From NCBI GenBank assembly GCA_041666945.1, contig JBAYFY010000001.1, positions 182,627 through 246,626 of the forward strand: 64,000 nt of DNA. The letters run 5' to 3'. Both the position numbers and the translations under genes were made by a program. Below, piece after piece: positions 2,019-44,091 of the stretch. The notes beneath the pieces are model-generated. The model made no database searches and had not been told where the DNA came from. It worked only from the letters and a program-made list of their open reading frames with translations. The first letter of the stretch is position 1. Every line of letters begins with the position of its first letter. Origin of the DNA: Candidatus Buchananbacteria bacterium (GTDB lineage: Bacteria; Patescibacteriota; Patescibacteriia; 2-01-FULL-39-33).

Positions 2019-2027
2019 CCAATATTT

Positions 2028-2714
2028 ATGCTTAGATGCGAAAATATAAATAAGATTTATCAGATGGGCGAAGATAACGAGTTGGCAGTCCTGTCTGATA
2101 TAAATTTTAAGATAAACAAAGGGGAATTTGTGGCCATTATCGGTCCCTCCGGTTCAGGCAAGACCACCCTGATGAATATTTTAGGCGCCCTGGATCGTCC
2201 CAGCACCGGCAAGTATTTTCTTGACGATCAGGACGTATTCAGTTTGTCGGATGAAGAGATAGCTTTAATCCGTTGCAAGAAAATCGGCTTTGTTTTTCAA
2301 TCATTCAATCTGTTGTCGCGCTCTACCGTATTGCGCAATGTCATGGTGCCTTTAATTTATGCCAAAGTGCCGAAAGAACAGCGTTTGGCTTTGGCCGATC
2401 AAGCCCTTAAAGCCGTCGGCCTGGAAGAAAATCGCTGGCATCACTTGTCCAACCAGTTATCCGGCGGACAAATGCAACGCGTGGCCATCGCCCGGGCGTT
2501 GATTAACAATCCCGACATTATTTTAGCCGACGAACCGACAGGCAATCTTGACTCTAAGACGGGGGAGATTACTTTGGAGACCTTTAAGCGTTTGAACCGC
2601 GAATACGGCCATACGATAATCCTTATTACCCATGATCATAATGTCGCCAGCCATGCCGATCGGATAATTGAGATCAAGGACGGCCGGATTACCAGCGATA
2701 AAAAAATCAGATAA
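2028..2714 (+). CDS. ABC transporter ATP-binding protein (MacB/LolD-type)
   Basis: Walker [13 protein letters not shown] signature [15 protein letters not shown], Walker [13 protein letters not shown]-loop ITHD. Confidence 0.9.
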
Positions 2715-2717
2715 TTT

Positions 2718-13135: not shown

Positions 13136-15334
13136 ATGAAAATATTAAATTTAGGCACGGATAAAGGCGTTTTTGTCCCGTCAGCGCCTGTGGCGCGGCG
13201 CTTGGTTGAGTATGGCGCCATGACCGACGGCTACGACATCATCGTGCCCGACAAACAGCCGAAAAAAAATAAATTGTCAGAAAAAGTAACCGCTTACGGC
13301 ACGGGCGGCAACAACAGATTGTCGGCTCTGCTCAAGACGTACCGGTTGGCGAAAAAATTATTCCGTCAAAACAATTACGACGTGATAACGGTTCAGGATC
13401 CTTTTGAATTGTCGCTGATAGGATTGTTGTTGGCCAAAAAATTCAATTGCGCCCTAAACATCCAAGAGCACGGCGATTTTTTCAGCACGACTCATTGGCG
13501 CAATGAGAATCCGATTAATTTTTGCCGTTACTATCTGGGACGCTGGCTGATCAAGCGGGCCGACAGCGTGCGCGCAGTCAGCGAGCGGATAAAAGATACG
13601 TTGATTAAGGATTTGCAGATAGCCGAAGATAAAATCGTGGTCGTCTCAGTTTACGTAAAAACAGACCGGCCGGCCGGGGGAAACAAGCCGGAAATCTTTG
13701 ACTGTTTGACCGGCAAGACCGTTTTTTTAACGATGGCGCGGCTGGTGAAGCAGAAAAATTTGCCGTTACTGGTTCGGTCTTTCGCTCTTGTCGTCAAACA
13801 GTCGCCGGACGCGGCCTTGCTTATTGTCGGCCGCGGTCCGGAAAAGGATAAATTGGCCAAACAAATAAAAGAATCGGGTCTGGAAGATAAAATTTTTCTG
13901 GTTGACTGGACCGACAGTATTTATGATTATTACAATTCGGCCGATGTTTATGTTTTAAGTTCCAATTACGAGGGCTGGGGGATGGTTGCAATAGAAGCCG
14001 CCAGTTGCGGCCTGCCCATAGTGATGACTGATGTCGGTTGCGCCGGCGAAGCGGTCAAGGACGGAGAGAGCGCTTTAGTCGTGCCTCTGGACGATGAGAA
14101 AAAATTGGCCGACGCCATGAAAAAACTTATCCAGGACGCTGATTTGCGCCGACGGCTTGGCCAATCGGCTAAGTTGGCGATTAACGCCCTGCCTACCCGC
14201 GAAGGGAATTTGGCGCTTTATTTAAAAAGCTGGCAAATCGCCAAAGACAAGAAAGGTCCGCAAACCTGCAAACATTTTTGGCCGGTTTTGGTACTCTTGG
14301 CGGTTGTGGCGTTAAATGTTTTCATGCGGCTTGATTTCGTCGGTTTTAGCGTCAATGGCGATGCCTATCAGTATATGGAAACGGCTAAATTGTTTATGAA
14401 CCAGCCGGCGGAAAGTTTTCCTTCCAGAATCTTGAAACCGTTGGGGCCGTTGGGCATTGCCTGGTTATCACCCTTAACCGGGGGCGATTTATCGGCGGCA
14501 TTTGAGGCGGAAGCGATTATATTTTATATTTTTTTGGCCTTGGCCGTTTATGCGCTGTTTAATTTGTTTTTTAAGGATAAGTGGCTGGCTTTGACAGGCG
14601 CATTGATTTATATTTCTTCCTATCCGTTGCTTAAATACGGCTTGGATTTATTCACTGAGTCGGGCGCGCAATTATTCTGGGTTCTGGCCGCCATCGGCGT
14701 TGTCAGGTTTTATAAGCGGCCGAATAATTTTAATTTATTTTTGACTTCGCTGATGGTTGTCGTCGGCATGCTGTGGAAAGAATACAGCAGCTTGGGCATG
14801 GTTTTCCTGTATTTGGTGATATTTTTCCATCCGCTGCTGCCCGCGGGCGAGAAATTTAAAAAAATATTTTTATCCACCGTTGCGGTCGGTTTGCCCCTGA
14901 TTGCCTGGCAGGTCGTGGTTTATTTCAATTATCATTATTCGTATTTGGACTGGTATAAGTTAGGTATCAGCGCTCCCAGCGGTTCGGAGTATCAGCCGTT
15001 TTTCGTCGTTAAGAGTATTGTCGGCGTTTATTTGGCCGCTTGGTTATTGGTGCCGCTGGGACTGATCAACTGGCGGGAGTTCACCGTTGATCAAAAATTC
15101 CTGATCAAGTGCATGATTTTGCCGTCTTTTATGTTTTTGCTTTGGACCGGCGTATCATCGCGTCTGTATTTTGTCCTGGCTTTGCTTTTAACTTTGCTGG
15201 CAATCAACGGATTAAAAAAATATTTTCACCGCTGCCCAAGCCGAGCCGCGGTCGTTGCCGTTATTATTTTGATTGATTATTTATGGTTGCTGACCAGCGA
15301 CGGGTTCAGGGAATTTTTCAGCAGATTTCTTTAA
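13136..15334 (+). CDS. fusion: N-terminal GT4 glycosyltransferase + C-terminal roughly 350-aa polytopic membrane domain
   Basis: GT4 motif EGWGMVAIEAASCGLPIVMTDVGCAGEAV in residues 1 to about 370. About 10 predicted TM helices from about residue 380 to the end. Confidence 0.7.
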   Translation: MKILNLGTDKGVFVPSAPVARRLVEYGAMTDGYDIIVPDKQPKKNKLSEKVTAYGTGGNNRLSALLKTYRLAKKLFRQNNYDVITVQDPFELSLIGLLLAKKFNCALNIQEHGDFFSTTHWRNENPINFCRYYLGRWLIKRADSVRAVSERIKDTLIKDLQIAEDKIVVVSVYVKTDRPAGGNKPEIFDCLTGKTVFLTMARLVKQKNLPLLVRSFALVVKQSPDAALLIVGRGPEKDKLAKQIKESGLEDKIFLVDWTDSIYDYYNSADVYVLSSNYEGWGMVAIEAASCGLPIVMTDVGCAGEAVKDGESALVVPLDDEKKLADAMKKLIQDADLRRRLGQSAKLAINALPTREGNLALYLKSWQIAKDKKGPQTCKHFWPVLVLLAVVALNVFMRLDFVGFSVNGDAYQYMETAKLFMNQPAESFPSRILKPLGPLGIAWLSPLTGGDLSAAFEAEAIIFYIFLALAVYALFNLFFKDKWLALTGALIYISSYPLLKYGLDLFTESGAQLFWVLAAIGVVRFYKRPNNFNLFLTSLMVVVGMLWKEYSSLGMVFLYLVIFFHPLLPAGEKFKKIFLSTVAVGLPLIAWQVVVYFNYHYSYLDWYKLGISAPSGSEYQPFFVVKSIVGVYLAAWLLVPLGLINWREFTVDQKFLIKCMILPSFMFLLWTGVSSRLYFVLALLLTLLAINGLKKYFHRCPSRAAVVAVIILIDYLWLLTSDGFREFFSRFL

Positions 15335-16825: not shown

Positions 16826-17521
16826 ATGAAATTGTCAGTTATTATACCGGTTTATAATGAACGGAAAACTATTTTGGAATTATTGCGCCGGGTTGAAGCG
16901 GTGCCTCTTTCAGGCGTAACCAAAGAAATCATCATCATTGATGACGGCTCCACCGATGGCACAAGAGAAGTCATTTCTGATTTTAGAGATAGATGCACGA
17001 TCATCCTAAAAGATAAAAATGAAGGCAAGGGTTCGGCCATTAAGCGCGGCCTTTCTGCGGCAACCGGCGACTTGCTGATCATCCAAGACGCCGATTTGGA
17101 ATATAACCCGCAAGAATATCAAGAAATTTTAGAGCCGATCATTAACGGCCAGGCCGATGTCGTTTACGGCTCGCGTTTCATCACCAGCAAACCGCACCGC
17201 GTTTTCTTTTTTTGGCATTATCTGGGCAACACTTTTTTGACAATCTTTTCCAATATTATGAGCAATTTGACTTTGACTGACATGGAAACTTGCTATAAGG
17301 CGTTTAATCGTCCGGTTATTGATTATTTAAAAAGCCGCTTGACTGCCAAGAGGTTCGGCGTTGAACCGGAAATTACCGCCTTGATCGCCAAAGGCAAATT
17401 TCGGATTTATGAAGTCGGCATTTCTTATTCCGGCCGCACTTATGAGGAAGGCAAGAAGGTTAATTGGAAAGACGGCCTGGCGGCGGTTTGGTATATTATT
17501 AAATTTAATTTATGGAAATAA
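16826..17521 (+). CDS. GT2 polyprenyl-phosphate sugar synthase (DPM1/GtrB/ArnC-like)
   Basis: SVIIPVYNE, IIIDDGSTDGT, DADLEY; about 230 aa. Confidence 0.85.
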   Translation: MKLSVIIPVYNERKTILELLRRVEAVPLSGVTKEIIIIDDGSTDGTREVISDFRDRCTIILKDKNEGKGSAIKRGLSAATGDLLIIQDADLEYNPQEYQEILEPIINGQADVVYGSRFITSKPHRVFFFWHYLGNTFLTIFSNIMSNLTLTDMETCYKAFNRPVIDYLKSRLTAKRFGVEPEITALIAKGKFRIYEVGISYSGRTYEEGKKVNWKDGLAAVWYIIKFNLWK

Positions 17522-20975: not shown

Positions 20976-23135
20976 ATGCTAAAAATCAATCAGGATAAGG
21001 ATTTAATTTTTATTTTGCCGCCCAAACGACTCAAAGAGCATCGTTATTCTTTGGGCTTGATGTATATCTCCGGCTATTTGCGGGATCATGGTTTTGACAA
21101 TTTGATTATTGACGGAAAATTCATTGCTACCCGGGGTTATCAATATGATAATCGCGAAAGGGCCAAGGAAGAAATCATCAAGGCGGTTGTGGAACTCAAG
21201 CCGCAAGTAATCGGTTTTACGGCTACGACTATGGAAATCGCCGAAGCCGTAGAAATGAATCGGAGAATCAAAGCGGAACTCGAAGTGTTCTCAATAATCG
21301 GCGGACCTCAAGCCACAGCCGATCCGGCCGGCGTGATTAATTCCGGTTTTGACGTGGCCGTTATCGGCGAAGGTGAAAAAACCGCGCTGGAATTGATGGA
21401 AGAGCTGCAAAAAGAACAACCGGATTTGCAAAGAGTGCGAGGCATTGCCTGGCCGGATCAAAACAATAATGTTGTCATTAATGAGCAGCGCGAGTACATG
21501 GATTTAACTGATTTGAGTTTGCCGGCTTATGATAAAGTGAACATGGCTTACTATACCAAGATCTGGGACGATATTATCAGGGGCATCCCCATGAAGGCGG
21601 TTATGGTCATGGCCTCTCGGGGCTGTCCGTATAGCTGCACCTTTTGCGCCTGCAACCAAGTTTTCGGGCGTCAGGTGCGTTACCGCGATTTGGAAAACAT
21701 CAAAAAAGAAATCAACCTTTTAAAAAATGAATATAACGTTGAGGGAATTTGGTTTGCTGACGACACTTTGACGACTAATTACGATCACGTGAGGAAAATC
21801 TGCCGGATTATGAAGGAGTCCGGTTTGTATTGGGGCGCGCAATCGCGGGTGGATTTGGTTAATGAGGAAATTATTAAGTTAATGGCTGAAAGCGGTTGTT
21901 TGCAGCTTGATTTTGGCGTGGAATCTGGCAGTCAGCGGGTTTTGGATGAAATCATCAATAAAAGAATAAAATTATCCGACGTGGAAAAGGCCTTTGAACT
22001 CTGCCAGAAATATGGCATTCGCCGAGAAGCGGGCTTTATGATCGGTTTGCCGAACGAAACCAAGGAAGAGATGCGACAAACTTTTGAATTCGCCAAAAAA
22101 ATCAAAGCCGATCATTACTCTTTCAGTATCTTTACCGCCCTGCCGGGAACGAAACTTTTCAATGATTTTTTTAAAGATCGCATCAGTGTCGCCGATTATT
22201 GCAATTTTTCTTTTTTTCAAAGCCAGGATAAATTCAATCGTTCCGGCGTCAGCGATTCCCAAGAATTAGAAAAATTATTCGAGGGTTGGCGCCAGGGCAT
22301 ATTTGAAGGCGTAAAAAAGAGAGGTTTGACCCATTTTTTAAGATTAGCGGCGATTTGGTTTAAACTGGGTAATAAAAAAGAACGCTGGGATTTTATATTC
22401 TTTAAAATTAAACGGGCTTTCAAATATTATTTTGGCAAGATTAGTAAAGGCATAGCGCGATCGTTTTTTTTCGAAGGTACGCGGCGCCCCGATTTTAAAA
22501 ATATTTCCAAGCATTTGGACTATAATCAGTATTGGCTGGAACGAGGATTCAAATTACGCAGCAAATTGATGGAAAGGGAAGTAATCTTTTTGGATTGGAT
22601 TAATCGGGGAGCGAAAGTTTTGGATTTGGGCTGCGGCAGTTCCCGTTTGCCTTACGAACTGAAAGAAAAGAAGGGTTGCCAAGTCAGCGGCCTGGATATT
22701 TCCAGTTTAGTGATTGATAATTTAAAGCGAGCCGGCATTGGCGGGGTAGTGGCTGATATTGAAAGCCCTGATTTTCACTTGGCCGATCAATATGATTACA
22801 TTGTTATTTCGGAAGTTTTGGAACACATCAAATATCCCGAAAATTTAATCGCTAAGATAAAGAATAGCGCCGACTATTTGGCGATTTCAATTCCCAATTC
22901 CGCTTTTTACCGTTATCGTTTCGGATTGATGTTCGGGGGTAGATTTTTTACCCAATGGATGACCCATCCGGCCGAACATCTGCGTTTTTGGAGCCATAAT
23001 GATTTTTTGCTTTGGCTGAACGATCTGGGTTTGGAAGTCGTTAAGTTTAAGTCGTCCAACGGTTTCCGTTTTAAGGACGTCTGGCCCAACATGTTCGGGC
23101 ATCAAATTTGCTATTTGGTAAAAACAAAAAAATGA
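20976..23135 (+). CDS. fusion: B12-binding radical SAM (N-terminal, about 470 aa) + class I SAM-dependent methyltransferase (C-terminal, about 200 aa)
   Basis: SLPAYD, SRGCPYSCTFC, GEGEKT; then VLDLGCGSSRLPYEL ... ISEVLEHIKYPENL. Confidence 0.8.
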   Translation: MLKINQDKDLIFILPPKRLKEHRYSLGLMYISGYLRDHGFDNLIIDGKFIATRGYQYDNRERAKEEIIKAVVELKPQVIGFTATTMEIAEAVEMNRRIKAELEVFSIIGGPQATADPAGVINSGFDVAVIGEGEKTALELMEELQKEQPDLQRVRGIAWPDQNNNVVINEQREYMDLTDLSLPAYDKVNMAYYTKIWDDIIRGIPMKAVMVMASRGCPYSCTFCACNQVFGRQVRYRDLENIKKEINLLKNEYNVEGIWFADDTLTTNYDHVRKICRIMKESGLYWGAQSRVDLVNEEIIKLMAESGCLQLDFGVESGSQRVLDEIINKRIKLSDVEKAFELCQKYGIRREAGFMIGLPNETKEEMRQTFEFAKKIKADHYSFSIFTALPGTKLFNDFFKDRISVADYCNFSFFQSQDKFNRSGVSDSQELEKLFEGWRQGIFEGVKKRGLTHFLRLAAIWFKLGNKKERWDFIFFKIKRAFKYYFGKISKGIARSFFFEGTRRPDFKNISKHLDYNQYWLERGFKLRSKLMEREVIFLDWINRGAKVLDLGCGSSRLPYELKEKKGCQVSGLDISSLVIDNLKRAGIGGVVADIESPDFHLADQYDYIVISEVLEHIKYPENLIAKIKNSADYLAISIPNSAFYRYRFGLMFGGRFFTQWMTHPAEHLRFWSHNDFLLWLNDLGLEVVKFKSSNGFRFKDVWPNMFGHQICYLVKTKK

Positions 23136-24920: not shown

Positions 24921-25616
24921 ATGAAAATCAATAAACTTTCCATTGTTATCCCGGCTTATAATGAAGCAAAAACCATTGAAGCCATCTTGCAAAGAGTGGC
25001 GGAAGCCGATTTGGGCGTAGCCAAAGAAATCATCGTGATTAATGACGGTTCCAGCGATAATTCCAAGGAGGTGCTGGATCGTTACCGGGATAAATACGTT
25101 ATTATCCATTTCTCGCAAAATCAAGGCAAGGGAGCGGGTGTGGCTGCCGGTTACCAGGTGGCGACTGGCGATTACATCGTGGTGCAGGACGCCGATTTGG
25201 AATATGATCCGAATGATTTGAAGAAATTAATAAACGAAGTGGAAAATTGCGGCGCTCAAGCGGTTTACGGTTCCAGGCGCTTGGGGCTGACCAGAAAGAA
25301 AAGCCCTAAAGCCGGTTGGTTTTATTATTTGGGCGGAGTTTATCTGACCTGGTTGACAAATTTCCTTTATGGCACGGCCATAACCGATGAGGCGACTTGC
25401 TATAAGATGGTCAGCAAGCAAGTTCTGGATAAGATAAACATTAAAGCCAAGGGTTTTGAATTCTGTCCGGAAGTAACGGCTAAAATTTCCCGGCAGGGCG
25501 TTAAAATCTATGAAGTGCCGATCTCTTATATTCCCCGCTCGCAAGAAGAAGGCAAAAAAATAAAACTTCGCGACGGTTTAATCGCCATTTGGACATTAAT
25601 CAAATATCGTTTTTAA
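24921..25616 (+). CDS. GT2 polyprenyl-phosphate sugar synthase (DPM1/GtrB-like), paralog of 16826..17521
   Basis: SIVIPAYNE, VINDGSSDNS, DADLEYD. Confidence 0.85.
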   Translation: MKINKLSIVIPAYNEAKTIEAILQRVAEADLGVAKEIIVINDGSSDNSKEVLDRYRDKYVIIHFSQNQGKGAGVAAGYQVATGDYIVVQDADLEYDPNDLKKLINEVENCGAQAVYGSRRLGLTRKKSPKAGWFYYLGGVYLTWLTNFLYGTAITDEATCYKMVSKQVLDKINIKAKGFEFCPEVTAKISRQGVKIYEVPISYIPRSQEEGKKIKLRDGLIAIWTLIKYRF

Positions 25617-25647: not shown

Positions 25648-27111
25648 ATGAAAATAATTTTAGTCCAACCCCCGCTTACTTTGGAAGAGAGGTATGGAAT
25701 AAAAAGCAAAAGCGGAGGAGAGTCCATTCCCTTGGGGTTGGTATATTTAGCCGCCGCCGCCAGAGCGGCCGGGCATCAAGTGGATATTATTGATGCGGAG
25801 ATTTTAAATTTGAATACGGCCTCGACGGTAGAAAAGATTTTGGCGGCTGATCCCGCCGTTGTCGGTTTTACGGCAGTCACCATTTCAATAGACAACGCGG
25901 CGGCAGTCGCTCGGGAAATAAAAAAAATCAAACCGGAAATAATCACGTTAATCGGCGGCCATCATTTAAGCACGGCGCCGGAGGAGACCCTGAAACTTTA
26001 TCCTCAATTCGATTTGGGAATCATCGGCGAAGGCGAGAAAACTTTGGTGGAGCTGTTAGCGGCATTGGCCCGGGGCGCTTGGGATAAAAATCAGCTAAGG
26101 GAGATTAACGGTTTGATTTTTAAATCCGATGATTCCGATGAATTTATCATTACGGCTCCGCGAGACAGAATTATTGATTTGGACACCTTGCCGCAGCCGG
26201 CTTTTGACCTGTTGCCGGATTTAATCAAATACTCTCCGCCGGTTCACACGGTTAAAAAATTTCCCGCCTCCACCTTAGTCACCTCGCGAGGTTGTCCCGG
26301 CCAATGCACTTTCTGCACCAGAAGCGTTTACGGCAATATCCTGTCATCCCATTCGGCGGAATATATGATGGAATTGGTTTTATTGCTTTATCATAAATAC
26401 GGCATCAGAGAGATCCAATTTCGCGACGACAATTTTACGGTTTTCAAACCGCGCCTTTACAAATTCTGCGAACTGTTGAAAAAGGAAAAATTGGATTTGG
26501 TTTGGACGGCCCTGGCTCGCGTTGATATGGTTGAACCGGAGATGTTTAAAGCGATGAAAGCGGCCGGCTGTTGGCAGGTTTGGTATGGCGTGGAGTCGGG
26601 CAATGAAAATATTTTGAAATTAATCAAAAAAAACACTACCAAGGAACAGATTAGAAACGCCATTAACTGGACGAAGAAAGCGGGAATCGACGTGGGAGCG
26701 TTTTTTATCATGGGTCATCCCGGAGAAACCAAAGAAACGCTGCAGGAAACCATTGATTTTGCCTTAACTTTAAAAATAGACGAATTTCATTGCACCCTCA
26801 TGACGCCCTTGCCCGGTTCGGAGATCAGCGGCAATTACTCCCGCTACGGGACATTTGAAAAAAATTGGAAAAAAATGAATGAATGGGAGCCGGTTTTCGT
26901 GCCCTTCGGCTTAACGAAAGAGGAACTGATAAAATACAACAGATTATTTTTCCGTAAATTTTATTTCCGCCCCCGGATCGTTCTAAATTATATGAAACGC
27001 TTGAGAAGTCCCAAGCATGTTAAAATTTATTTTTTGGGTTTTTTGGCGCTTTGTGAATGGATTATTAGCGGTAAAAAGCGGCAAGAACAGAAAATCGTAT
27101 GTCAACAATAA
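25648..27111 (+). CDS. B12-binding domain radical SAM protein (class B)
   Basis: LPQPAFDLLP; SRGCPGQCTFC; GGHHLS, GEGEKT. Confidence 0.85.
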   Translation: MKIILVQPPLTLEERYGIKSKSGGESIPLGLVYLAAAARAAGHQVDIIDAEILNLNTASTVEKILAADPAVVGFTAVTISIDNAAAVAREIKKIKPEIITLIGGHHLSTAPEETLKLYPQFDLGIIGEGEKTLVELLAALARGAWDKNQLREINGLIFKSDDSDEFIITAPRDRIIDLDTLPQPAFDLLPDLIKYSPPVHTVKKFPASTLVTSRGCPGQCTFCTRSVYGNILSSHSAEYMMELVLLLYHKYGIREIQFRDDNFTVFKPRLYKFCELLKKEKLDLVWTALARVDMVEPEMFKAMKAAGCWQVWYGVESGNENILKLIKKNTTKEQIRNAINWTKKAGIDVGAFFIMGHPGETKETLQETIDFALTLKIDEFHCTLMTPLPGSEISGNYSRYGTFEKNWKKMNEWEPVFVPFGLTKEELIKYNRLFFRKFYFRPRIVLNYMKRLRSPKHVKIYFLGFLALCEWIISGKKRQEQKIVCQQ

Positions 27112-29663
27112 AAAGCATTTTTTCCCGGTACCGATCATGGCTGATTATTGCCGCCGCTTTTTTGGCGGTGCGAATTTTGGTTTTTATCACTTTTTGGCAG
27201 GCCAGCGTAAGTCGGGGCGGTTGGCAGAATTTTTATAACCAAGCCCAGCCGGCGGTCTCCGTGTTGCTGGGTATTTTCCATGATTACTGCGATTGGCATC
27301 CGCCGCTTTATTATATGGCAACTTCCGTTTTATTGCATTGGCTGGGAGGGGAGTGGATGATTTATCTGGCGCAGGTGGCCTTAGCTTTCGTGACTTTATT
27401 CATCGGTTATAAACTGATCCGCTTGTTTTTTAGCGAAAGGATTTCTTTGTTGGTCACTTTTTTAGTCGCCATTGAACCTTATTGGGCTTGGCACAATTTT
27501 TTATTAGTCAGTGAAAATCTCGCCATCCCGCTGTTTTTGGGCGGCGTTTATTATTTTTTGAAATTTTTTCTATTTCCGGAAAATAAGCAATTAATGATTA
27601 GCGGGTTATTGCTGGGCTTGTCTACTTTGGTCAGGCAAAACACCTCGCCTTTGATGGCGATTCTGCCGGTTTTTCTCATCTTGGCCTATGTTTTTCGAAA
27701 AATATTAGCTTTAAAGGAATTGGAGCGGATTAATTGGCGCAAAATAGTTTTAGGCGCCGCCGCTTTTATTTTGGTTTTTGCCGCCGTTATCTCGCCTATT
27801 TTAATCAAGAATAAGATTGTTTATCAACGCTTGACCCTGGTTAATTTATTGGCGACGAATATTTATTTTTATAATCTGCCGGCGTTGATTTCTTATCAGA
27901 AACAAATTCCCTATGCTGATGCCTACAATCTTATCGTTAAGCAAGCTGATGACGCTTTGGGAGCGAATATTGGCAATCAAGGCGACTGCCTGTCGGTTAG
28001 TTTGCCTGAATTCAACCGTGAATTGGATTATTACAGCCAAACGGCCAAAACCTACATCTTAGGTAATTTTGCCGATTACCTCAAAGTGCATTTGATCAGA
28101 ACAGTGCCTTTCTTTTTCCAGCCCGGCTATTTTGAAATGTGGTCGGCTTACACCGGGGAATTTTCCAAACCGGATATTACCGGTTTCATTTTAAACGGCA
28201 ATTGGCAGGGGATTTTTGATTTTCTCAAGCAGATTAATCTTAAATTATTGACGTACTTTTCCGGCATCGCCCTGTGGGGCATCTGTTCCGTCGCCTTGCT
28301 TGCGGCCTTGGTTTACTCGTGTTTTAAAGATCGGGACAAACTGCTGTTTTTCGTTTTTTCGGCCATGATTATCCTTTATACCGCTTTGATGGTGTCGCCT
28401 TTTGTTTTGGCGCGTTATCGTTTGCCGGTTTATATTTTTTTCTTCTCTGCTTTAGCTTATTGCTGCGGCCTGCTTTTGGTCTTTTTGAAAAAGAATAAAC
28501 ATCAGGTGAAAAAAATTATTAAAGCTGTACCGATAATTTCTCCCTTAGCGAAATTATTTTATGATTGGCGCCGCGATAAACTGGCCGACGGCAAGATTAA
28601 AAAATTTATTGAATTGTCGGAACTGCCTTTTAAAACCGTCGCTCCGCCGATTTATGAAATCGGTTATGAGCCGACAATCAAATGCAATTTGCGTTGCAAG
28701 ATGTGCTATCAGGGCGAGAACAGGAATTTGCGCCAGCAGGAACTGTCAACCGAACAAATCCTGGAGGTTTTTAAAAAGATATCCGGTAAAACCAAAGAAA
28801 TAAAACTGGTCGGCGGCGAACCTTTCGCGCGACAGGATATTTTGGAACTGATTGCTTTTTGGGATTCTTTAGGCAAGAGAGTAATCCTCCAGACCAATTG
28901 CACGCTTATTAATGAGGATAATATTGATCGCTTGGCCGAATATAAACATTTGACCGATATTTTAACCTCATTAGACGGTCCCAAGGAATTGCATGATGCC
29001 ATTAGGGGCGTGCCAGGGACCTTTGACAGATTGGAGCGCGCTCTGGGGCTTTTACGGGTCAAGATGCCCCAGGTTCCGATTACTATTTTTGCCACCTTGC
29101 TGATTAATGACAACGTTGATAATTTTTTTGAATTAATCGATACGACCAAAAAATTAGGCATTACCACAATCAATGTTTTGTTTGAGCAGGTTTATTCAGC
29201 GGAAGAGGTCGCTCAAACCAAAAATATTTTTAATCAAGAATTCGGCTGGGAGGACGGCCGCGATTATCGTCTGAATACGCAGGTTCGGAATCCGATTTTC
29301 CCCTCCGATCTTGATGCCGGCGAATTGAAGAAAAAATTAGCTAAAATCAGATCGTATGGCCTTAAAAACGGTTGTTTCGTTAATTTTTCTCCGTTTAATT
29401 ACTACCACAATCTGCCGCAATATCTGGGTCGCCAGCCCGCCAGGCCCTTCTGTTTGAAACTGCTGCAGCCGGAATTGCGCATTAATCAGCGCGGCGAGGT
29501 TGTCTGGTGCGATATTATTGAGAAATCATTTGGCAATCTGTTGGATAAAACCCCGGATGAGATTTGGCTGTCTGATGATTATCAGAAATTCCGCCAGTAT
29601 TTGTTCAAGCATTCATTGTCCGTTTGTTCCAGATGTTGCAAGGCGGTTTATATTAATAATTAA
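27099..29663 (+). CDS. fusion: N-terminal GT-C-like (PMT/ArnT-like) polytopic membrane glycosyltransferase domain + C-terminal radical SAM domain with Cys-rich SPASM/twitch-like tail
   Basis: About 11 TMs in residues 1 to about 470, with an acidic first loop HDYCDWHPPLYY. Then YEPTIKCNLRCKMCYQ, GGEPF, and a C-terminal CxxC/CC cluster. Confidence 0.65.
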   Translation: MSTIKSIFSRYRSWLIIAAAFLAVRILVFITFWQASVSRGGWQNFYNQAQPAVSVLLGIFHDYCDWHPPLYYMATSVLLHWLGGEWMIYLAQVALAFVTLFIGYKLIRLFFSERISLLVTFLVAIEPYWAWHNFLLVSENLAIPLFLGGVYYFLKFFLFPENKQLMISGLLLGLSTLVRQNTSPLMAILPVFLILAYVFRKILALKELERINWRKIVLGAAAFILVFAAVISPILIKNKIVYQRLTLVNLLATNIYFYNLPALISYQKQIPYADAYNLIVKQADDALGANIGNQGDCLSVSLPEFNRELDYYSQTAKTYILGNFADYLKVHLIRTVPFFFQPGYFEMWSAYTGEFSKPDITGFILNGNWQGIFDFLKQINLKLLTYFSGIALWGICSVALLAALVYSCFKDRDKLLFFVFSAMIILYTALMVSPFVLARYRLPVYIFFFSALAYCCGLLLVFLKKNKHQVKKIIKAVPIISPLAKLFYDWRRDKLADGKIKKFIELSELPFKTVAPPIYEIGYEPTIKCNLRCKMCYQGENRNLRQQELSTEQILEVFKKISGKTKEIKLVGGEPFARQDILELIAFWDSLGKRVILQTNCTLINEDNIDRLAEYKHLTDILTSLDGPKELHDAIRGVPGTFDRLERALGLLRVKMPQVPITIFATLLINDNVDNFFELIDTTKKLGITTINVLFEQVYSAEEVAQTKNIFNQEFGWEDGRDYRLNTQVRNPIFPSDLDAGELKKKLAKIRSYGLKNGCFVNFSPFNYYHNLPQYLGRQPARPFCLKLLQPELRINQRGEVVWCDIIEKSFGNLLDKTPDEIWLSDDYQKFRQYLFKHSLSVCSRCCKAVYINN

Positions 29664-37785: not shown

Positions 37786-39234
37786 ATGGATCTGTTGCTG
37801 ATTGAAGTCAGGGGTATAAACAAATACATCAATAACGGCTTGGCTTATTTGGGCGGCTCGCTGATCGGGCGTTGTGCTTTTAATATTATTGATTTGAATT
37901 TTTTGGCTTGGTCGCCCGATCAGTTGAAAGATTTTATCATTGCCGTTAATCCCAAAGTTTTGGGTTTTTCGGTCAAATCCACCAATGCGGCAGCAGTTGA
38001 GGATTTAATTGCCGAACTGAAAGGAAAAATCAACAGCTTGATCATTGTTGGGGGGCCGCATGTTAGTTTGTTGGGAACGGAATATTTGCGGGCTAACCCT
38101 GACATTGATTATGGCTTGCAGTTTGAGGCCGAACGATCCCTGCCGCTTTTTTTTGATTTTTTAGCCGGTCAAAAAAAAATTGATGAGGTCCCCGGATTGG
38201 TTTACAGGGCTAACGGAGAATGTCTCGCCAATCCTTACTCTTTTACCGTTGACTTGGATAAATTGAATTTTCCCGATTACGATCATTTTGCCGAGTTTAA
38301 TCCCAGCCGATATTTTAGGGATCATCCTTATCCGCTGTTAACCAGCCGCGGCTGTCCGTATAATTGTATTTATTGTTCGGTTAAGTTTGTCAGCGGCCGA
38401 CTTTGGCGGTTTAGGAGCGTGGAAAATATTATTGAAGAAATAATCGCCGCTAAGGAAAAATATCAGATAAGCAGCTTTGAATTGGTTGATGATAATTTCA
38501 CTCTGGATATTGATCGGGCTTTGCTGTTCTGCCGCTCATTGGTTGATCGGCAATTAAATCTCATTTGGGGCTGCCCCAATGGCATCAGGGCCGATCGGGT
38601 TAATCAGGAACTGTGCAAGGCCATGTATGAGTCAGGTTGCCGTCATGTCGCTTTGGGCATAGAAAGTGGCGTACCCGAAATTTTTGACCGGATAAAAAAA
38701 GGCGAGAAATTAGAAGATGTCGCCAAGGCCGCTAAGATGTTGATGGAAAGCGGCATCAAAGTTACGGGGTTTTTCATTGTCGGTTTGCCTGGCGATAGCA
38801 TCAAGCATACCAAACAAACGGTGAAATTTTTCAATCAATTAAAATTAAACGGCGGCATTAAGTGGAATTTTTTAATTCCCTATCCCCATACCGAATTGTG
38901 GGATTGGATTAAAAAAGAAGGGAAATTATTGAATAATTTCGCTTTAGGCCGTCATTTTTCTAAAACGGGGGATAGAATTATCCCGATTTTTGAAACTGCC
39001 GATTTTAGCTCTCAAGCTCGGTTGAAAGCTTGGAAAATTGCCAATTTATCCACCGAGTCGTATTCAGCCGTCTTTAAAATACCAAAAAATCCGATCGTTT
39101 TCAGGCTAAAAATGGCTTATTTTTTATTATTGTATGCCCCGCAAGTGTTGTGGCGGAAATTATCAGGGATAATCCCAAAATTGTTAAGGAATCAGCGGAA
39201 TATTAAAGCGGCTTCCAAGAAACATGATTTATGA
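37786..39234 (+). CDS. B12-binding domain radical SAM protein (class B)
   Basis: NFPDYD; TSRGCPYNCIYC; GGPHVS. Confidence 0.85.
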   Translation: MDLLLIEVRGINKYINNGLAYLGGSLIGRCAFNIIDLNFLAWSPDQLKDFIIAVNPKVLGFSVKSTNAAAVEDLIAELKGKINSLIIVGGPHVSLLGTEYLRANPDIDYGLQFEAERSLPLFFDFLAGQKKIDEVPGLVYRANGECLANPYSFTVDLDKLNFPDYDHFAEFNPSRYFRDHPYPLLTSRGCPYNCIYCSVKFVSGRLWRFRSVENIIEEIIAAKEKYQISSFELVDDNFTLDIDRALLFCRSLVDRQLNLIWGCPNGIRADRVNQELCKAMYESGCRHVALGIESGVPEIFDRIKKGEKLEDVAKAAKMLMESGIKVTGFFIVGLPGDSIKHTKQTVKFFNQLKLNGGIKWNFLIPYPHTELWDWIKKEGKLLNNFALGRHFSKTGDRIIPIFETADFSSQARLKAWKIANLSTESYSAVFKIPKNPIVFRLKMAYFLLLYAPQVLWRKLSGIIPKLLRNQRNIKAASKKHDL

Positions 39235-40187
39235 ATCAGATTAATCCCCGAGTTGACATCGTTATTTGCAGTTATAAGAATAAAGAATTGACCGCAAAAT
39301 GCCTTGACTCCTTGTTGGATTCAACGTATATTAACTATAATATTATTTTAGTTGATGACCATTCCCCGGATGATTCAGTTGATTATTTTCAACGACATTA
39401 CCCGGAAATCACTGTTATTGCAAATGAAGTTAATCTGGGTCCGGCGGCATCGCGCAACCGGGGAATTAATCATGGACAAGCCGAATATATCGTAACCATG
39501 GATAATGATGCGACGCTGTCTAAAACCTGGCTGACCGAAATGATCCGATTAATGGATTCAGACGAAAGCATAGGACAGGCCGTAGGAAAAATTTTGTTTG
39601 CCGGTGAACCCGGGAAAATAGCCGCTGCCGGCGGCAGCATGTTATTCCGCGGCAAGGGTTATGATATCGGTCTGGGCGCGGAAGCGGATAACCCCCGGTA
39701 TAACCAATTCAGACAGGTGCTTTATGCCTGCAGCGCTTCAATGATTATCAGACGCAGCGTCCTAGAGAAAATCGGCGGTTTTTACGAGGGCTACTATCAT
39801 GGTTATGAAGATACCGATTTGTCATTAAGAGCCAACATCGCCGGTTTCAAAGTCGTTTATCAGCCGAACAGCATCAGTTATCACGGCCTTAGCGCGACCG
39901 TAAATAAGACCATTGATAATAAACGAACAACTTATCTTTGGATGCGGAATCGGTTGCTAATCATGTTAAGAAATTATCCCTGGCCGTTTTTGATTAAATT
40001 TTTTCCGCTTAATATTCGTTTTAATATCGGCCATTGCCTAAGCGAGCCCGACGATTTCTTGCCGTTTATCAGAAGTATTATTTCCATTATTATTAATGCT
40101 TTCAATATCCATTCTGCTCGTAAAGAAAATAAACGGTTGAAAAAAATCAGCGACGAGCGGCTGGAACAATTATTCAATTTAAATTAA
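39231..40187 (+). CDS. glycosyltransferase family 2
   Basis: DIVICSYKN, ILVDDHSPDDS, DNDA. Confidence 0.8.
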   Translation: MNQINPRVDIVICSYKNKELTAKCLDSLLDSTYINYNIILVDDHSPDDSVDYFQRHYPEITVIANEVNLGPAASRNRGINHGQAEYIVTMDNDATLSKTWLTEMIRLMDSDESIGQAVGKILFAGEPGKIAAAGGSMLFRGKGYDIGLGAEADNPRYNQFRQVLYACSASMIIRRSVLEKIGGFYEGYYHGYEDTDLSLRANIAGFKVVYQPNSISYHGLSATVNKTIDNKRTTYLWMRNRLLIMLRNYPWPFLIKFFPLNIRFNIGHCLSEPDDFLPFIRSIISIIINAFNIHSARKENKRLKKISDERLEQLFNLN

Positions 40188-40190
40188 TCT

Positions 40191-41267
40191 ATGGAGTTTA
40201 TTAAGAGATTGAAGATAATCAAGCAGTATTTGCCGGTAAGTAAATTTTATTTTTATTATTTATTAAAAAAAGATTGGCCGCTTTACGGGTTGATTTTTCA
40301 GGTGACTAATAAATGCAATTCCCGTTGCTTGATGTGTTTTAATTGGCAGGTAATCAATACGGAAACCGACGAGCTTTCTTTGGCGGAGATAGAAAAGTTT
40401 GCCAAAACCGTCGGCGCCATAAGAAGCGTTACCTTGGGCGGCGGCGAACCGTTCTTGCGATCTGATTTGCCGGAAATTTGTGAGATTTTTTACCGTTGCA
40501 GTGCCACCCGAAAGATCGCCATACCGACAAACTGCCTCCTGCCCGACCGGATAATAGAACAAACCCAAAAAATATTAGCCGCCGTACCAATCAAACTGAA
40601 AGTCGTCTTATCTCTGGACGGGATCGGCGAAGTGCATGATACGATCAGGGGAATAGCCGGAAATTTTGAACGTTTCTCGGAGACCTATGAAAAATTAATG
40701 GAATTGGCCAAAGTTAATGAGGCCTTGCAAGTCAGCGTCAACTCCACTATTTCCAATGTTAATAAGGATAATATTGCCGACATTATTGATTTTATTGATC
40801 GGCATCCCGGCATTAAGTATCATACCGCCGAAGTTATCCGCGGCTCGTTTGACCCGCAAAAAATTGCTCCGCTGGATTTAAAGCAATACGAAGATTTGCT
40901 TAATCGGGTTTTGTTTAAAAGCAAGACCTTGGCTAATGATTTTGCCAATAAGTTGTTTTACGTTTATTATCATAAGATAGCCCTGCGGATAATGAAGCAA
41001 AAAAGGCAAATTTTACCGTGCCGCTCCGCTTCCTTTTTCCCGGTTGTTGATGCTTGGGGCAATGTGTATAATTGCGAAATGCTGCCAAAAATTGGGAACT
41101 TAAGAAACGCCGATTATGATTTTAAAAAAATCTGGCAATCAGCGGCTGCCAAACGGCAACGATTGGACATTAGGAATAAAAAATGTTGGTGTACCCACTA
41201 TTGCTATCAATTGCCCAATATTATAATGAGCCCCTGGCATCTGCTCCGGGCTGTTTTGGGGATTTAA
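40191..41267 (+). CDS. radical SAM / SPASM-domain protein (no B12 domain)
   Basis: FQVTNKCNSRCLMCFNW, GGEPFL. C-terminal Cys-rich CRSASFF...YNCEM...CWCTHYC. Confidence 0.75.
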   Translation: MEFIKRLKIIKQYLPVSKFYFYYLLKKDWPLYGLIFQVTNKCNSRCLMCFNWQVINTETDELSLAEIEKFAKTVGAIRSVTLGGGEPFLRSDLPEICEIFYRCSATRKIAIPTNCLLPDRIIEQTQKILAAVPIKLKVVLSLDGIGEVHDTIRGIAGNFERFSETYEKLMELAKVNEALQVSVNSTISNVNKDNIADIIDFIDRHPGIKYHTAEVIRGSFDPQKIAPLDLKQYEDLLNRVLFKSKTLANDFANKLFYVYYHKIALRIMKQKRQILPCRSASFFPVVDAWGNVYNCEMLPKIGNLRNADYDFKKIWQSAAAKRQRLDIRNKKCWCTHYCYQLPNIIMSPWHLLRAVLGI

Positions 41268-41287
41268 ATTATAAATAATCTAAAGTT

Positions 41288-43117
41288 ATGTGGCAACAGT
41301 CAAATAATCGTTTTAACCGATTGATTATCTTAATTTTACTGCCCGTGGTTTTTTTTATGGCGGCCGCCTTTTGGTATTTCCCGGTTTTTTTCAAAGGCAG
41401 CACCGCTCAGCCCGCTGAAGCGGAAAATTTTATCTTGGCCAGGAATCTGGTCCGGACCGGGTTTTACGGCATGGAAGACAGCCGCAATATCGTTTTAGCG
41501 CCGTCCTTAGTCAGTCAGCACGCCCAGCCCAGCACCCAGGGAAATAAGTTCACTACTTGGTCTTATGCCGCCTTGTTCAAATACATCGGCCTGCCCGATT
41601 TTAATGTGTTGATAATTATTGCCGTGATTATCCAAGCGCTGGCTTTAGTTTTATTTGCCGCCGTTGTTTTTTATTTATTCGGCTGGGAAGCGGCTATAAT
41701 TTTTTCTTTGGTTTATATCCTATTGCCGTTTAATTCCCAGATGGTTCAGACAATCGGCACTTATGAATTTGCCATGTTATATTTCGCAATTTTTTCCGTT
41801 TTGTTTTTTCTGGGCCGAAAAACCAAGGGTAAATATATTTTTTTGCCTTTAGCCGGTATTTTTCTATCGCTATCTTGTTTGGCGCGGGAAGTGATGTTTT
41901 TATTCCCCCCCGTGTTTTTCTGTTGGCTTATTTTTCAACCCCAGCAACAGCCCGTTGCCGCTTCAAAGATTTTATCGTCCCTGCAGTCGGTTCGGTCATG
42001 GTTTAAAACAACCGCGACTAATCTTAAAAAAAATGTCACTAAAATTAATTTAATAAACGCCGGCCTGGTTTTTGTTCCTTTCTTCGTCATGCTGGCGGTT
42101 TTTTGGTTGCCGGCGATAGTCGGTCTTCGCGGCACCAATGATTATTTCAGGGTTTTTGTCGCTAATAAAACACAGACCGGTAATTGGTCGGAATTTAATT
42201 TTTACGGCCATCTTTTCCCCGATCCTTATACCTTTTATTTCGATCAAAAAACCGTACTGGATAAATTCAATTCAGACATTGCCAGCCGGGGAATATTGGA
42301 ACGCATTGATTTAATCAAGGTGGGAGCCAATATCGGCATCCGCCCCATTAACTTAATGGAGAGAATGATTGTGGGGTCGAATAATTTACTCGCCCATCTT
42401 TCCCGCTTTGTTGCTTTGGAGTATATCGGCGGATCGTTGTTTTTCATTTTAATGCTGTTGGGCATTAAAGAATTGAGCCGTCGCGATAAGAATTTAACCG
42501 TTCTTTTTGCCAGTTGGCTGGTGTTCTCCATCTTAATTTCCAGTTACGTTGTTTTGGCTTCGCGCGACCATTTAATGGACTGGGGTTGGGCGATTGCGCT
42601 TTTTATCAGTTTTGGTTTAACGGGTTTAGTAAAAATTATTAGCGATCGTTATGTCGCCAACAAATTCAGCCGATTAGCCGGCTGGTTAGCCATTTTCTTG
42701 CTTATTTACGGCCTGATCCAGGCGAATCATGTTTATTGGGGGCGAGGATATGATGATAACGTCAACTTAAAGATCGTCTATTTGGCAGAACAGGTTCGTT
42801 CGCGGACCGAAGCCATCAAGCCGGAGGAAACGGTAGTCGTGGGCAATAGGGCGTTGCACCCCCTGTTGAATTATTTGACGGGAGTGTCAGCGGTTTATTT
42901 TTCTCCCGAGACCGTCGGCCGTTTACTGCAAGAGCAGAAACTTCAGTCGGCATTTGAAGCTTATAACGTGAAATACGTGATTGGTTATGACAGTGAATTG
43001 GCGCAACAAATCTCTTCCAGCAGCCAAGCAATAAATATCGCTGATTGGCCCCGGGCCGGAGTAGTGGAAGCCAAAGCCAGCCCCGGGAAAATGTGGTTTC
43101 TTAATTTGATAAAATAA
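41288..43117 (+). CDS. large polytopic membrane protein of unknown function (possible GT-C-like transferase)
   Basis: About 12 TMs with loops in between. No soluble catalytic motifs recognised. Confidence 0.45.
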   Translation: MWQQSNNRFNRLIILILLPVVFFMAAAFWYFPVFFKGSTAQPAEAENFILARNLVRTGFYGMEDSRNIVLAPSLVSQHAQPSTQGNKFTTWSYAALFKYIGLPDFNVLIIIAVIIQALALVLFAAVVFYLFGWEAAIIFSLVYILLPFNSQMVQTIGTYEFAMLYFAIFSVLFFLGRKTKGKYIFLPLAGIFLSLSCLAREVMFLFPPVFFCWLIFQPQQQPVAASKILSSLQSVRSWFKTTATNLKKNVTKINLINAGLVFVPFFVMLAVFWLPAIVGLRGTNDYFRVFVANKTQTGNWSEFNFYGHLFPDPYTFYFDQKTVLDKFNSDIASRGILERIDLIKVGANIGIRPINLMERMIVGSNNLLAHLSRFVALEYIGGSLFFILMLLGIKELSRRDKNLTVLFASWLVFSILISSYVVLASRDHLMDWGWAIALFISFGLTGLVKIISDRYVANKFSRLAGWLAIFLLIYGLIQANHVYWGRGYDDNVNLKIVYLAEQVRSRTEAIKPEETVVVGNRALHPLLNYLTGVSAVYFSPETVGRLLQEQKLQSAFEAYNVKYVIGYDSELAQQISSSSQAINIADWPRAGVVEAKASPGKMWFLNLIK

Positions 43118-44091
43118 TGATAAAAATTGGAACCAGGTGGAAAAAAATAATTTCTTTAATCATAACTTTGGCTTTAGTGGCCCTGCTTTTAACGCAGATT
43201 GATTTTACCCAAGCCAAAGATATTATTTTAAAAATATCGTGGCCCTACCTTTTAATCGCGTTTATTTTTTATTTTGTTGGCGTTTGTTTGCGGGCTTGGA
43301 GATGGCAAATTTTGATTCTTTCCAAGAAAGTTGGTTTTTTAAATTCTTTAAAAATCACTTTAGGTTATACTTTTTTCTGCAACTTGCTGCCCTTTAGAAG
43401 CGGCGAGTTAAGTTTTGTTTATTTTATAAAAAAACGCGAAAACATAGCCGTGGCTGAAGGCCTTAGTGTCTTGTTGATAGCCAGATTTTTTGATCTTTTA
43501 GCGGTGGCCGTTTCGTTTTTAGCCGGTTTTATTTTGCTTAATCCCGGCTATATTCCGCCCAATAAGATTTATTTAAGCTGCATTGTATTGGGTTTAGGCA
43601 CGATTGCCGTTTTATTTTACCTTGATCAACTGATTAAAGCGGCTATCGTTTTAATGGACAAGGCAGGATTGACTAAGTTTAAATTCGGTGCTAAGCTAAT
43701 CATCAAATTGAAAGAAGCTATAACCAGTATCAAAGCAATTCGCTCCCTGCCCGTTTATTTGATTAATTTATTGATTTCATTTTTATGGTTAGCGTCCGCC
43801 TCTTTAATGGTTATAGCATTCTTTCGTTCCTTAAATATCGATTTTGGCTGGTTAAAGGTAACCTTGGGGCTTATTTTCAGCCAGTTGATAAGCTTTCTGC
43901 CCGTTCAAGGACTGTGGGATTTCGGCACTTATGAAACCGGCTGGGCCATTGGTTTTGGCTTATTGGGCTTGAATAAGGAAGCAGCGATTATTTCCGGTTT
44001 TATGGTGCACTTATTCAGCTTGGCCTATCTTTTAATTTTGATTATTATCTTTTTACCCGTCAGAAGTATTTTAAAAAAGACCAATTTATGA
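43117..44091 (+). CDS. flippase-like / lysylphosphatidylglycerol-synthase-TM-region family membrane protein
   Basis: 8 TMs. N-terminal WKKIISLIITLALVALLL...ISWPYLLIAFIFYFVGVCLRAWRWQIL is typical of the family. ATGA overlaps with both neighbours. Confidence 0.6.
   Translation: MIKIGTRWKKIISLIITLALVALLLTQIDFTQAKDIILKISWPYLLIAFIFYFVGVCLRAWRWQILILSKKVGFLNSLKITLGYTFFCNLLPFRSGELSFVYFIKKRENIAVAEGLSVLLIARFFDLLAVAVSFLAGFILLNPGYIPPNKIYLSCIVLGLGTIAVLFYLDQLIKAAIVLMDKAGLTKFKFGAKLIIKLKEAITSIKAIRSLPVYLINLLISFLWLASASLMVIAFFRSLNIDFGWLKVTLGLIFSQLISFLPVQGLWDFGTYETGWAIGFGLLGLNKEAAIISGFMVHLFSLAYLLILIIIFLPVRSILKKTNL

Follow-up and report, generated by a model that had tools for sequence, protein, structure and literature searches.

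The locus described here lies in a window of 64,000 nucleotides (the whole stretch of DNA analysed; contig JBAYFY010000001.1 of assembly GCA_041666945.1, positions 182,627 to 246,626 of the forward strand) from Candidatus Buchananbacteria bacterium, a member of the Patescibacteria/Parcubacteria group. Our subject is one open reading frame (ORF) in this window, whose product is a genuine single polypeptide with a GT-C glycosyltransferase half and a radical S-adenosylmethionine (SAM) half. Such fusions recur in groundwater Patescibacteria. The protein represents the fused version of a module, conserved in Patescibacteria, that is composed of a small GT2 glycosyltransferase of the polyprenyl-phosphate sugar synthase type, a GT-C enzyme and a radical SAM enzyme. 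An identical protein is annotated at NCBI as 'MAG: radical SAM protein [Candidatus Buchananbacteria bacterium]' (MAG, metagenome-assembled genome). The ORF and its parts are as follows.

27099..29663, + strand: whole fusion ORF, 854 aa, uninterrupted; its start overlaps the stop of the upstream B12-binding radical SAM gene by 13 nt
27099..28493, + strand: GT-C half (PMT_2/ArnT-like, GT-C fold), residues 1-465, predicted N-in/C-in
Ten transmembrane (TM) helices of this half: residues 12-37, 86-108, 113-132, 139-158, 162-178, 185-198, 213-242, 381-409, 412-432 and 438-465
27279..27314, + strand: first extracytoplasmic loop motif HDYCDWHPPLYY, residues 61-72, conserved in 31/31 homologues
27825..28238, + strand: all-helical extracytoplasmic domain, residues 243-380, in the TM7-TM8 interval, with invariant C297 and K357-P358-D359
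28494..28652, + strand: basic linker of two helices, residues 466-518
28653..29438, + strand: radical SAM core, residues 519-780, with CxxxCxxC at 28683-28706 and GGEP at residues 572-575
29439..29660, + strand: twitch-like auxiliary Fe-S domain, residues 781-854, with invariant C785, C804, C843, C846 and C847

Both halves are recognized by Pfam: PMT_2 matches residues 67-226 (30.7 bits; gathering score, 26.1), Radical_SAM matches residues 524-681 (83.3 bits, E 2.8e-23) and SPASM matches residues 790-846 (33.6 bits; gathering score, 21.5). None of the curated NCBIfam models came near its cut-off, the best being AhbD with 95 bits against 500. The AlphaFold2 (AF2) model of the full-length protein, based on a 94-sequence alignment, had a mean predicted local distance difference test score (pLDDT) of 93.1 and a predicted template modelling score (pTM) of 0.82.

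The original prediction, made from the sequence of the window, had called the fusion highly unusual and had named sequencing error as a possible source. A frameshift or an assembly artefact could join two neighbouring genes in this way, and two local features would favour it: an A7 run lies within the window junction, and the stop/start overlap in loci where the two genes are split sits in an A-rich stretch. Against this stand the recovery of the identical fusion protein in four sources and a word-indexed search that found eight diverged full-length fusions. One of these, P0002 (85% identity), presents the same continuous 854-aa ORF in independent ENA and Logan assemblies, in a gene order that matches the window, and 180 nt of junction DNA could be aligned between the two with ∼25% substitutions and no indel. 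Others include P0003, P0005, P0006 and three triple fusions (P0007-P0009; ∼1080 aa) carrying an extra N-terminal GT2 before GT-C and radical SAM regions; an 855-aa fusion occurs in another Buchananbacteria MAG (L007), and other lineages carry fusions at 45-55% identity. An artefact is barely conceivable on this evidence, and the sequencing-error fusion is effectively refuted. An exhaustive HMMER scan found that both halves are spanned by only 2 of 1.84 billion cluster representatives (P0152 and P0009), so the fused state is rare. 'Highly unusual' thus applies to the fused form only and not to the unfused pair, which is common in Patescibacteria.

The module occurs in four states, as separate overlapping genes, as GT2+GT-C, as GT-C+radical SAM and as the triple fusion. 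Stand-alone orthologues of the radical SAM half number more than 100 (∼386 aa, 50-67% identity) and are almost all unnamed. The radical SAM gene overlaps a preceding stand-alone GT-C gene by 32 nt in L001 and a preceding GT2+GT-C fusion by 4 nt in L003; the corresponding GT-C/radical SAM overlaps are 26 nt in L009 and 8 nt in L013. The linker of the fusion (residues 466-518) is the counterpart both of the N-terminal extension of the stand-alone radical SAM proteins and of the stop/start overlap of the split loci. Profile hidden Markov models of the families were run with hmmsearch over 36 fetched loci, 15 of which contained a close radical SAM orthologue with usable flanks; the family GT-C was fused or adjacent in 10 of these 15. 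Two further genomes carry a GT2+GT-C fusion and the radical SAM gene 5-7 kb apart in the same cluster, and more distant radical SAM relatives (34-37% identity) in a Sphingomonadaceae MAG and a Chloroflexota MAG are flanked by PMT_2 genes. In a neighbour-joining tree of the radical SAM domain, built without bootstrap support, the fused forms do not group together: the window fusion, for example, is sister to stand-alone P0033 and P0008 to stand-alone P0084; this scatter suggests several fusion or fission events in the family.

Some of the loci compared show further variation. A different radical SAM protein of 461 aa, with no B12 or SPASM match in Pfam, is encoded in L002 (9452-10837) and L006 (3992-5377); in L002 it directly follows the stand-alone GT-C gene as another partner of the GT-C family. 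In L003 (477-2355), the glycan locus has toxin-antitoxin genes of the AbiEii/DUF4325 type at its border, and small unannotated ORFs directly upstream of the radical SAM gene in L012 (5596-6947) and L010 (6127-6792) occupy the place that GT-C has elsewhere. These arrangements hint at mobile-element insertions splitting the module.

The GT2 component of the module is encoded shortly upstream of the fusion.

24921..25616, + strand: cognate small GT2, 231 aa, polyprenyl-phosphate sugar synthase type

This protein shares 59% identity with the GT2 domain of the triple fusion P0007, against only 40% for the product of 16826-17521. The best matches of 24921-25616 are AglJ, ArnC, PgfS, PpgS and Dol-P-hexose transferases, every one of them a polyprenyl-phosphate sugar synthase, with all scores below equivalog cut-offs. 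The original prediction had counted four DPM1-like GT2 synthases as possible sources of a lipid-linked donor. That count does not hold, as only two GT2 genes of the locus resemble polyprenyl-phosphate sugar synthases; the idea itself is upheld by the 59% identity between 24921-25616, a DPM1/AglJ/ArnC-like enzyme, and the triple-fusion GT2. From this genomic context, a polyprenyl-phosphate sugar provided by the adjacent or fused synthase-like GT2 would be the likely donor of the GT-C half.

Modelled alone, the membrane half reached a pLDDT of 85.7 and a pTM of 0.87 (AF2). It contains the conserved N-terminal 7-TM module of the GT-C fold, AftA and AftB are among its structural neighbours, and its homologue P0152 scores 54.1 bits with the PMT_2 profile (PF13231; gathering score, 26.1). 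A phmmer search of this half against PDB sequences gave nothing significant, and Foldseek with the full-length model returned radical SAM matches only. The N-terminal half is not a transporter. The polytopic region had been credited with about 11 TM helices; AF2 helices combined with hydropathy gave 10, residues 69-82 forming a juxtamembrane helix inside the first outer loop. ArnT (GT83) and PMT (GT39) enzymes have 11-13 TM helices, a soluble extracytoplasmic domain at the C-terminus or in a loop, and an outward C-terminus, whereas the fusion has 10, a predicted inward C-terminus and a helical outer domain between TM7 and TM8. The GT-C half is therefore not an ArnT or PMT orthologue.

Eight residues of the first extracytoplasmic loop (H61, C64, D65, W66, H67, P68, P69 and Y71) do not vary among 31 homologues. 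No acidic residue of this loop other than D65 is invariant (31/31), and D65 is a candidate catalytic base; E126, at the outer end of TM3, is equally invariant (31/31). The invariant GT-C residues cluster on predicted outer-face segments: the loop 1 set, E126-P127, R179 and N181, K357-P358-D359, and R439 and R441. C64 (27288-27290) and C297 (27987-27989), invariant in all 31 homologues, are both in predicted extracytoplasmic segments; a disulfide between them may fasten the catalytic loop to the outer domain.

The orientation of the protein can be predicted from charge and from fusion partners. Using AF2 helix boundaries, the family-averaged net charge is +2.2 before TM1, +2.5 in the loop 199-212 and +2.9 after TM10; the first extracytoplasmic loop averages −1.3 and the large one −0.8. 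In ten homologues, TM1 is immediately preceded by a GT2 that depends on nucleotide sugars, an arrangement possible only with an inside N-terminus. From there the seven conserved GT-C helices are predicted to end outside and three further helices to return the chain inside, which would place the radical SAM domain in the cytoplasm, the site of SAM and reductants, and the GT-C active-site loop outside. A periplasmic radical SAM domain, the outcome that would have made such an enzyme implausible, is thus not what the charge pattern and the GT2 fusions predict. The same topology makes radical modification at the glycan transfer step, as first suggested, implausible: with the GT-C loop outside and the radical SAM domain inside, the coupling would lie upstream of transfer, on the cytoplasmic face. 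We propose, with a confidence that falls somewhat short of even, that the lipid-linked sugar donor is altered by the radical SAM domain while on the cytoplasmic face, ahead of flipping and of transfer by GT-C. Remodelling before transfer is the most economical reading because the fusion states bring together a synthase and a radical enzyme, both cytoplasmic, and a transferase that faces outward.

Judged from Pfam, invariant motifs and Foldseek, the C-terminal half constitutes an intact radical SAM enzyme that also carries an auxiliary Fe-S domain. The motif IKCNLRCKMCYQ occupies residues 527-538, with C529, C533 and C536 invariant in 71-72 sequences; GGEP (residues 572-575) is also invariant, G572-G573-E574 being the SAM-binding motif, and the core is a partial TIM barrel. 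All the motifs quoted in the original prediction are present and are conserved in homologues. Foldseek gave a probability of 1.0 to SuiB, anSME, BlsE and viperin, and the structural neighbours are BlsE (TMt 0.71, the best target-normalized match), viperin, anSME, SkfB and DesII.

The C-terminal tail, initially described as a Cys-rich region of the SPASM type, does hold an auxiliary Fe-S region recognized by the Pfam SPASM model, but its cysteines are those of a smaller domain. Five are invariant (C785-x18-C804...C843-x2-C846-C847), and this pattern runs through the whole clade. AF2 folds the region as a beta-hairpin followed by a helix, and searched alone it matched BtrN as the sole solved protein, weakly (E about 1e-3). 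The C-x18-C...C-x2-C arrangement resembles what we take to be the cysteine pattern of BtrN. Canonical SPASM domains have a seven-Cys motif and two auxiliary clusters (PMC13459092), and SPASM/twitch domains hold one or two auxiliary clusters (PMC8326336). The twitch version is a shorter C-terminal domain whose roughly four Cys hold a single auxiliary cluster. The full SPASM pattern (CX9-15GX4C...CX2CX5CX3C...C) is absent although the Pfam model matches, since neither the CX2CX5CX3C block nor the seventh Cys was found in the fusion or across its clade. A full SPASM domain with two auxiliary clusters was rejected on the cysteine count, and because there are five invariant cysteines and no such block the domain fits a twitch-like type, presumably with one cluster. 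That the spare fifth cysteine serves as a hydrogen-atom donor is speculation.

These relationships bear on three other roles for the radical SAM domain. It might be a maturase of proteins or peptides, of the anSME type or of the type that serves RiPPs (ribosomally made peptides with post-translational modifications), acting on an acceptor protein or a partner enzyme, as its nearest neighbours in sequence and structure include SkfB, SuiB, CteB, anSME and PqqE. Scans with Pfam and NCBIfam, however, gave no match to a RiPP recognition element (RRE) in the fusion; the N-terminal extension is a two-helix linker of ∼50 residues, the auxiliary cysteines are five only, and the neighbours are all glycan-assembly genes, with no precursor-peptide or sulfatase genes among them. 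A maturase is accordingly very improbable, and its RiPP form was rejected for lack of an RRE and of a peptide context.

Membrane tethering of the domain and sub-threshold matches to HpnH (TIGR03470, 59.8 bits) and GDGT-MAS would suit a substrate that is the lipid itself, either the polyprenyl carrier or another membrane lipid undergoing adenosylation, cross-linking or saturation in the manner of HpnH or Tes/GDGT-MAS. Yet these scores are far under the family cut-offs and reflect the common core only, the genomic context is wholly one of glycan assembly, and the fusion partners in the clade are glycosyltransferases; we regard a lipid substrate as very unlikely. The match to BlsE, a cytosylglucuronate decarboxylase, together with the presence of DesII among the fold matches and the predicted cytoplasmic location, would suit an enzyme that makes or alters a soluble nucleotide-sugar precursor (in the manner of BlsE or DesII), the product then being loaded on the lipid by GT2. 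A soluble substrate gives no obvious reason for repeated fusion to the C-terminus of a polytopic protein, and the conserved basic N-terminal helices suggest docking to the membrane or to GT-C, so we consider this route unlikely.

The fusion lies in a surface-glycan locus of the Wzx/Wzy type of roughly 47 kb, mostly a plus-strand operon of about 36 kb. It encodes about nine GT4 enzymes, several GT2 and one GT9, together with two polysaccharide deacetylases, SAM methyltransferases, Wzx, a Wzy_C protein and a WbaP-type initiating transferase. This type of locus recurs around the fusion homologues. The following neighbours bear on the module.

25648..27111, + strand: B12-binding radical SAM gene immediately upstream of the fusion; orthologues flank GT-C in L001, L033 and L035
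29677..31026, + strand: B12-binding radical SAM gene immediately downstream; orthologues lie downstream in L001 and L033
31028..32443, + strand: second downstream B12-binding radical SAM gene; orthologues directly follow the fusion in L005 and L006
43117..44091, + strand: flippase-like membrane protein (LPG_synthase_TM / TIGR00374), candidate donor flippase

The flanking B12-binding radical SAM genes are distinct orthogroups that often accompany the module, and no B12-binding orthogroup was universal to it among the loci compared. Altogether, the window holds ten B12-binding radical SAM genes (starting at 11682, 15338, 20976, 25648, 29677, 31028, 33662, 37786, 44088 and, on the minus strand, 45529) and two radical SAM domains with SPASM/twitch regions between 11682 and 46947. 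The ten are ∼27-38% identical among themselves and 46-93% identical to orthologues in related loci. As the orthologues are closer than the paralogues, these genes represent distinct conserved functions and not recent duplicates. Their number implies a glycan that is unusually heavily radical-tailored, possibly C-methylated, in an organism not expected to make cobalamin.

A possible second module spans 39231-44091 of the window, with a GT2 (39231-40187), a stand-alone radical SAM/SPASM protein (40191-41267), a polytopic ORF (41288-43117) and the flippase-like gene (43117-44091). The radical SAM/SPASM protein is 32% identical over the core and has a different Cys pattern, CxCxxxC. The polytopic ORF, of 609 aa and at least 9 TM helices, has no Pfam or NCBIfam match; it was considered as a second family GT-C, for which hhalign against the GT-C family was not significant. 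Two other long proteins deserve mention. At 20976-23135, a 719-aa protein joins a B12-binding radical SAM domain to a class I SAM methyltransferase (MetW/Methyltransf_23) and has an orthologue in L033. At 13136-15334, a 732-aa GT4 matches Pfam at residues 48-346 only, its C-terminal ∼385 aa having no family match; L005 encodes a 731-aa GT4 at the corresponding position. The 5' edge of the locus carries an HlyD/MacB-type ABC export system (249-3941) and the 746-aa Wzy_C protein, O-antigen ligase/polymerase-like (4894-7134), and the 3' edge at about 60 kb is marked by tRNA-synthetase and housekeeping genes.

More distant relatives of the radical SAM domain (∼30% identity) are fused to GT4, GT2, GT28, Wzx flippase, B12-binding radical SAM and, in one case, a multi-glycosyltransferase protein of 1920 aa, so the wider clade is dedicated to glycan assembly. 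The 1920-aa protein (P0288) combines GT2, GT28, radical SAM and GT4 regions with a C-terminal radical SAM/twitch domain of the same clade. Among the other relatives are fusions to the Wzx flippase (P0219), GT28 (P0245), GT4 (P0195) and B12-binding radical SAM (P0203).

The main rival to donor remodelling follows from these partners: the radical SAM domain would modify a polyprenyl-diphosphate-linked repeat-unit oligosaccharide, or the growing glycan, made by the many GT4 enzymes at the cytoplasmic face, and its fusion to GT-C would only anchor it where assembly takes place at the membrane. In favour of this, the locus has a WbaP-type initiating transferase, Wzx and Wzy, and the clade fusions to GT4, GT28 and Wzx fit modification of an undecaprenyl-diphosphate-linked repeat unit at least as well as they fit donor remodelling. 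The orthologue group in question is, by contrast, tied specifically to GT2 and GT-C in every fusion state, triple fusions included, and is translationally coupled specifically with the GT-C gene. Action on the repeat unit is doubtful on balance, though it deserves serious weight.

Besides these clade fusions, other observations weigh against donor remodelling. Close radical SAM orthologues are not next to GT-C in L008, L011, L012 and L026, as the repeat-unit alternative would also allow. The orthologue in L026 (Candidatus Fischerbacteria, MFGW01000132.1, 6995-8149; 54% identity) is outside Patescibacteria, and at that locus we detected neither a family GT-C nor a GT2, nor were obvious glycan genes seen close by; horizontal transfer, or another role, may lie behind it. 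At the locus of the fusion, there is no adjacent flippase of the GtrA or MATE type. Finally, we infer the identity of the substrate, the chemistry and the acceptor, the first two from genomic context only.

Donor remodelling would proceed in four steps. At the cytoplasmic face, the GT2 of 24921-25616 would use a nucleotide sugar to charge polyprenyl phosphate with a sugar. The radical SAM domain, held at that face by GT-C, would then abstract a hydrogen atom from the lipid-linked sugar and convert it into a different sugar; oxidation to a keto-sugar (BtrN- or anSME-like) or epimerization would be the likeliest outcomes, with decarboxylation possible, and the neighbouring B12-binding radical SAM methylases may tailor the donor further. 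The modified donor would be flipped, and the GT-C half would finally put the sugar on an exported glycan or a surface protein.

Both domains come from known superfamilies and the pathway logic has precedents. In the literature searched, from which subscription journals were mostly missing, we found nothing linking a radical SAM enzyme with GT-C, ArnT, PMT_2 or a polyprenyl-phosphate sugar. It is quite conceivable, though somewhat less likely than not, that the fusion represents the first radical SAM enzyme acting on a polyprenyl-phosphate-linked sugar, physically joined to the GT-C that uses what it makes; it would then be an anaerobic equivalent, driven by SAM, of DprE1/E2 or ArnD. If so, the GT2-GT-C-radical SAM triple fusions would be single-polypeptide machines that make, remodel and transfer a surface sugar no nucleotide-sugar pathway supplies. 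GT-C systems diversify their lipid-linked donors by auxiliary hydrolases or by nicotinamide or flavin epimerases; a radical SAM partner would bring C-H activation to extracytoplasmic glycosylation and thereby sugars unreachable via nucleotide-sugar routes. Repeated fusion serves here as a Rosetta stone, giving a testable role to a Patescibacteria GT-C family and to a radical SAM family that is large but unnamed (more than 100 clusters at 90% identity; none of the curated NCBIfam models reaches its cut-off). Patescibacteria cell surfaces are central to an episymbiotic lifestyle. The proteins are compact, and the stand-alone orthologues should suit anaerobic biochemistry.

Among the closest parallels are the three-component systems for extracytoplasmic glycosylation, such as GtrA/GtrB/GtrC, CsbB/GtcA/YfhO and polyprenyl-phosphoribose synthase/MATE flippase/GT136 with an auxiliary epimerase (PMC11127046, PMC7389260). 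There, as proposed here, a polyprenyl-phosphate monosaccharide is made by a cytoplasmic synthase and added outside, by a GT-C, to a glycan that is already complete, in the setting of a Wzx/Wzy-type locus; an auxiliary enzyme, which is optional, converts the donor sugar into another one. The auxiliary enzyme of the GT136 system, ORF13, is an epimerase of the short-chain dehydrogenase/reductase (SDR) type (PMC11127046), whereas that of the module is a radical SAM/twitch enzyme translationally coupled or fused to GT-C and sometimes to GT2. Of the three components, the fusion locus has the synthase-like GT2 and the GT-C; it lacks an adjacent GtrA or MATE donor flippase, and the only flippase candidate is the product of 43117-44091.

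The Arn pathway comprises the GT2 ArnC, the deformylase ArnD acting on undecaprenyl-phosphate-linked Ara4FN (Und-P-Ara4FN), the flippase ArnE/F and the GT-C ArnT. ArnT has 13 TM helices and a periplasmic C-terminal domain, unlike the fusion with its 10 helices and predicted cytoplasmic enzyme domain, and where ArnD is a hydrolase the modifier here is a radical enzyme. BtrN, BlsE and DesII share the partial TIM-barrel core, and BtrN and BlsE also have a short C-terminal Fe-S domain, but their sequence identity to the fusion is 15-20%. Their substrates are soluble aminocyclitol or nucleoside sugars, and to our knowledge they are never membrane-tethered or fused to a glycosyltransferase. The relationship to anSME, PqqE, SuiB and CteB consists of a Pfam SPASM match above cut-off and a common core fold; the fusion family differs from them in its lack of the CX2CX5CX3C block, the seventh Cys, an RRE and a peptide context.

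Cds and HpnJ, two radical SAM enzymes that act on lipid-anchored hexoses, show radical chemistry on a sugar that a membrane lipid already carries, as proposed for the fusion; these enzymes ring-contract final membrane-lipid head groups, and HpnJ is a B12-domain enzyme (PMC13459092). Unlike the fusion, neither is linked to GT-C or to a polyprenyl-phosphate carrier. In known systems, lipid-linked donors are acted on by auxiliary enzymes ahead of GT-C transfer, and DprE1/DprE2 epimerize decaprenyl-P-ribose to decaprenyl-P-arabinose for the Emb/Aft GT-C enzymes (PMC11127046). In both DprE1/E2 and the proposed pathway, a lipid-linked sugar is redox-remodelled into the sole donor of GT-C enzymes; DprE1/E2 use FAD and NADH, while the fusion would use SAM and Fe-S radical chemistry, suited to anaerobes, and epimerization is just one candidate reaction for it. 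Taken together, the precedents of ArnC/ArnD/ArnT, DprE1/E2 with Emb/Aft, the GT136 epimerase ORF13 and Cds/HpnJ support the logic of remodelling a lipid-linked sugar before its transfer.

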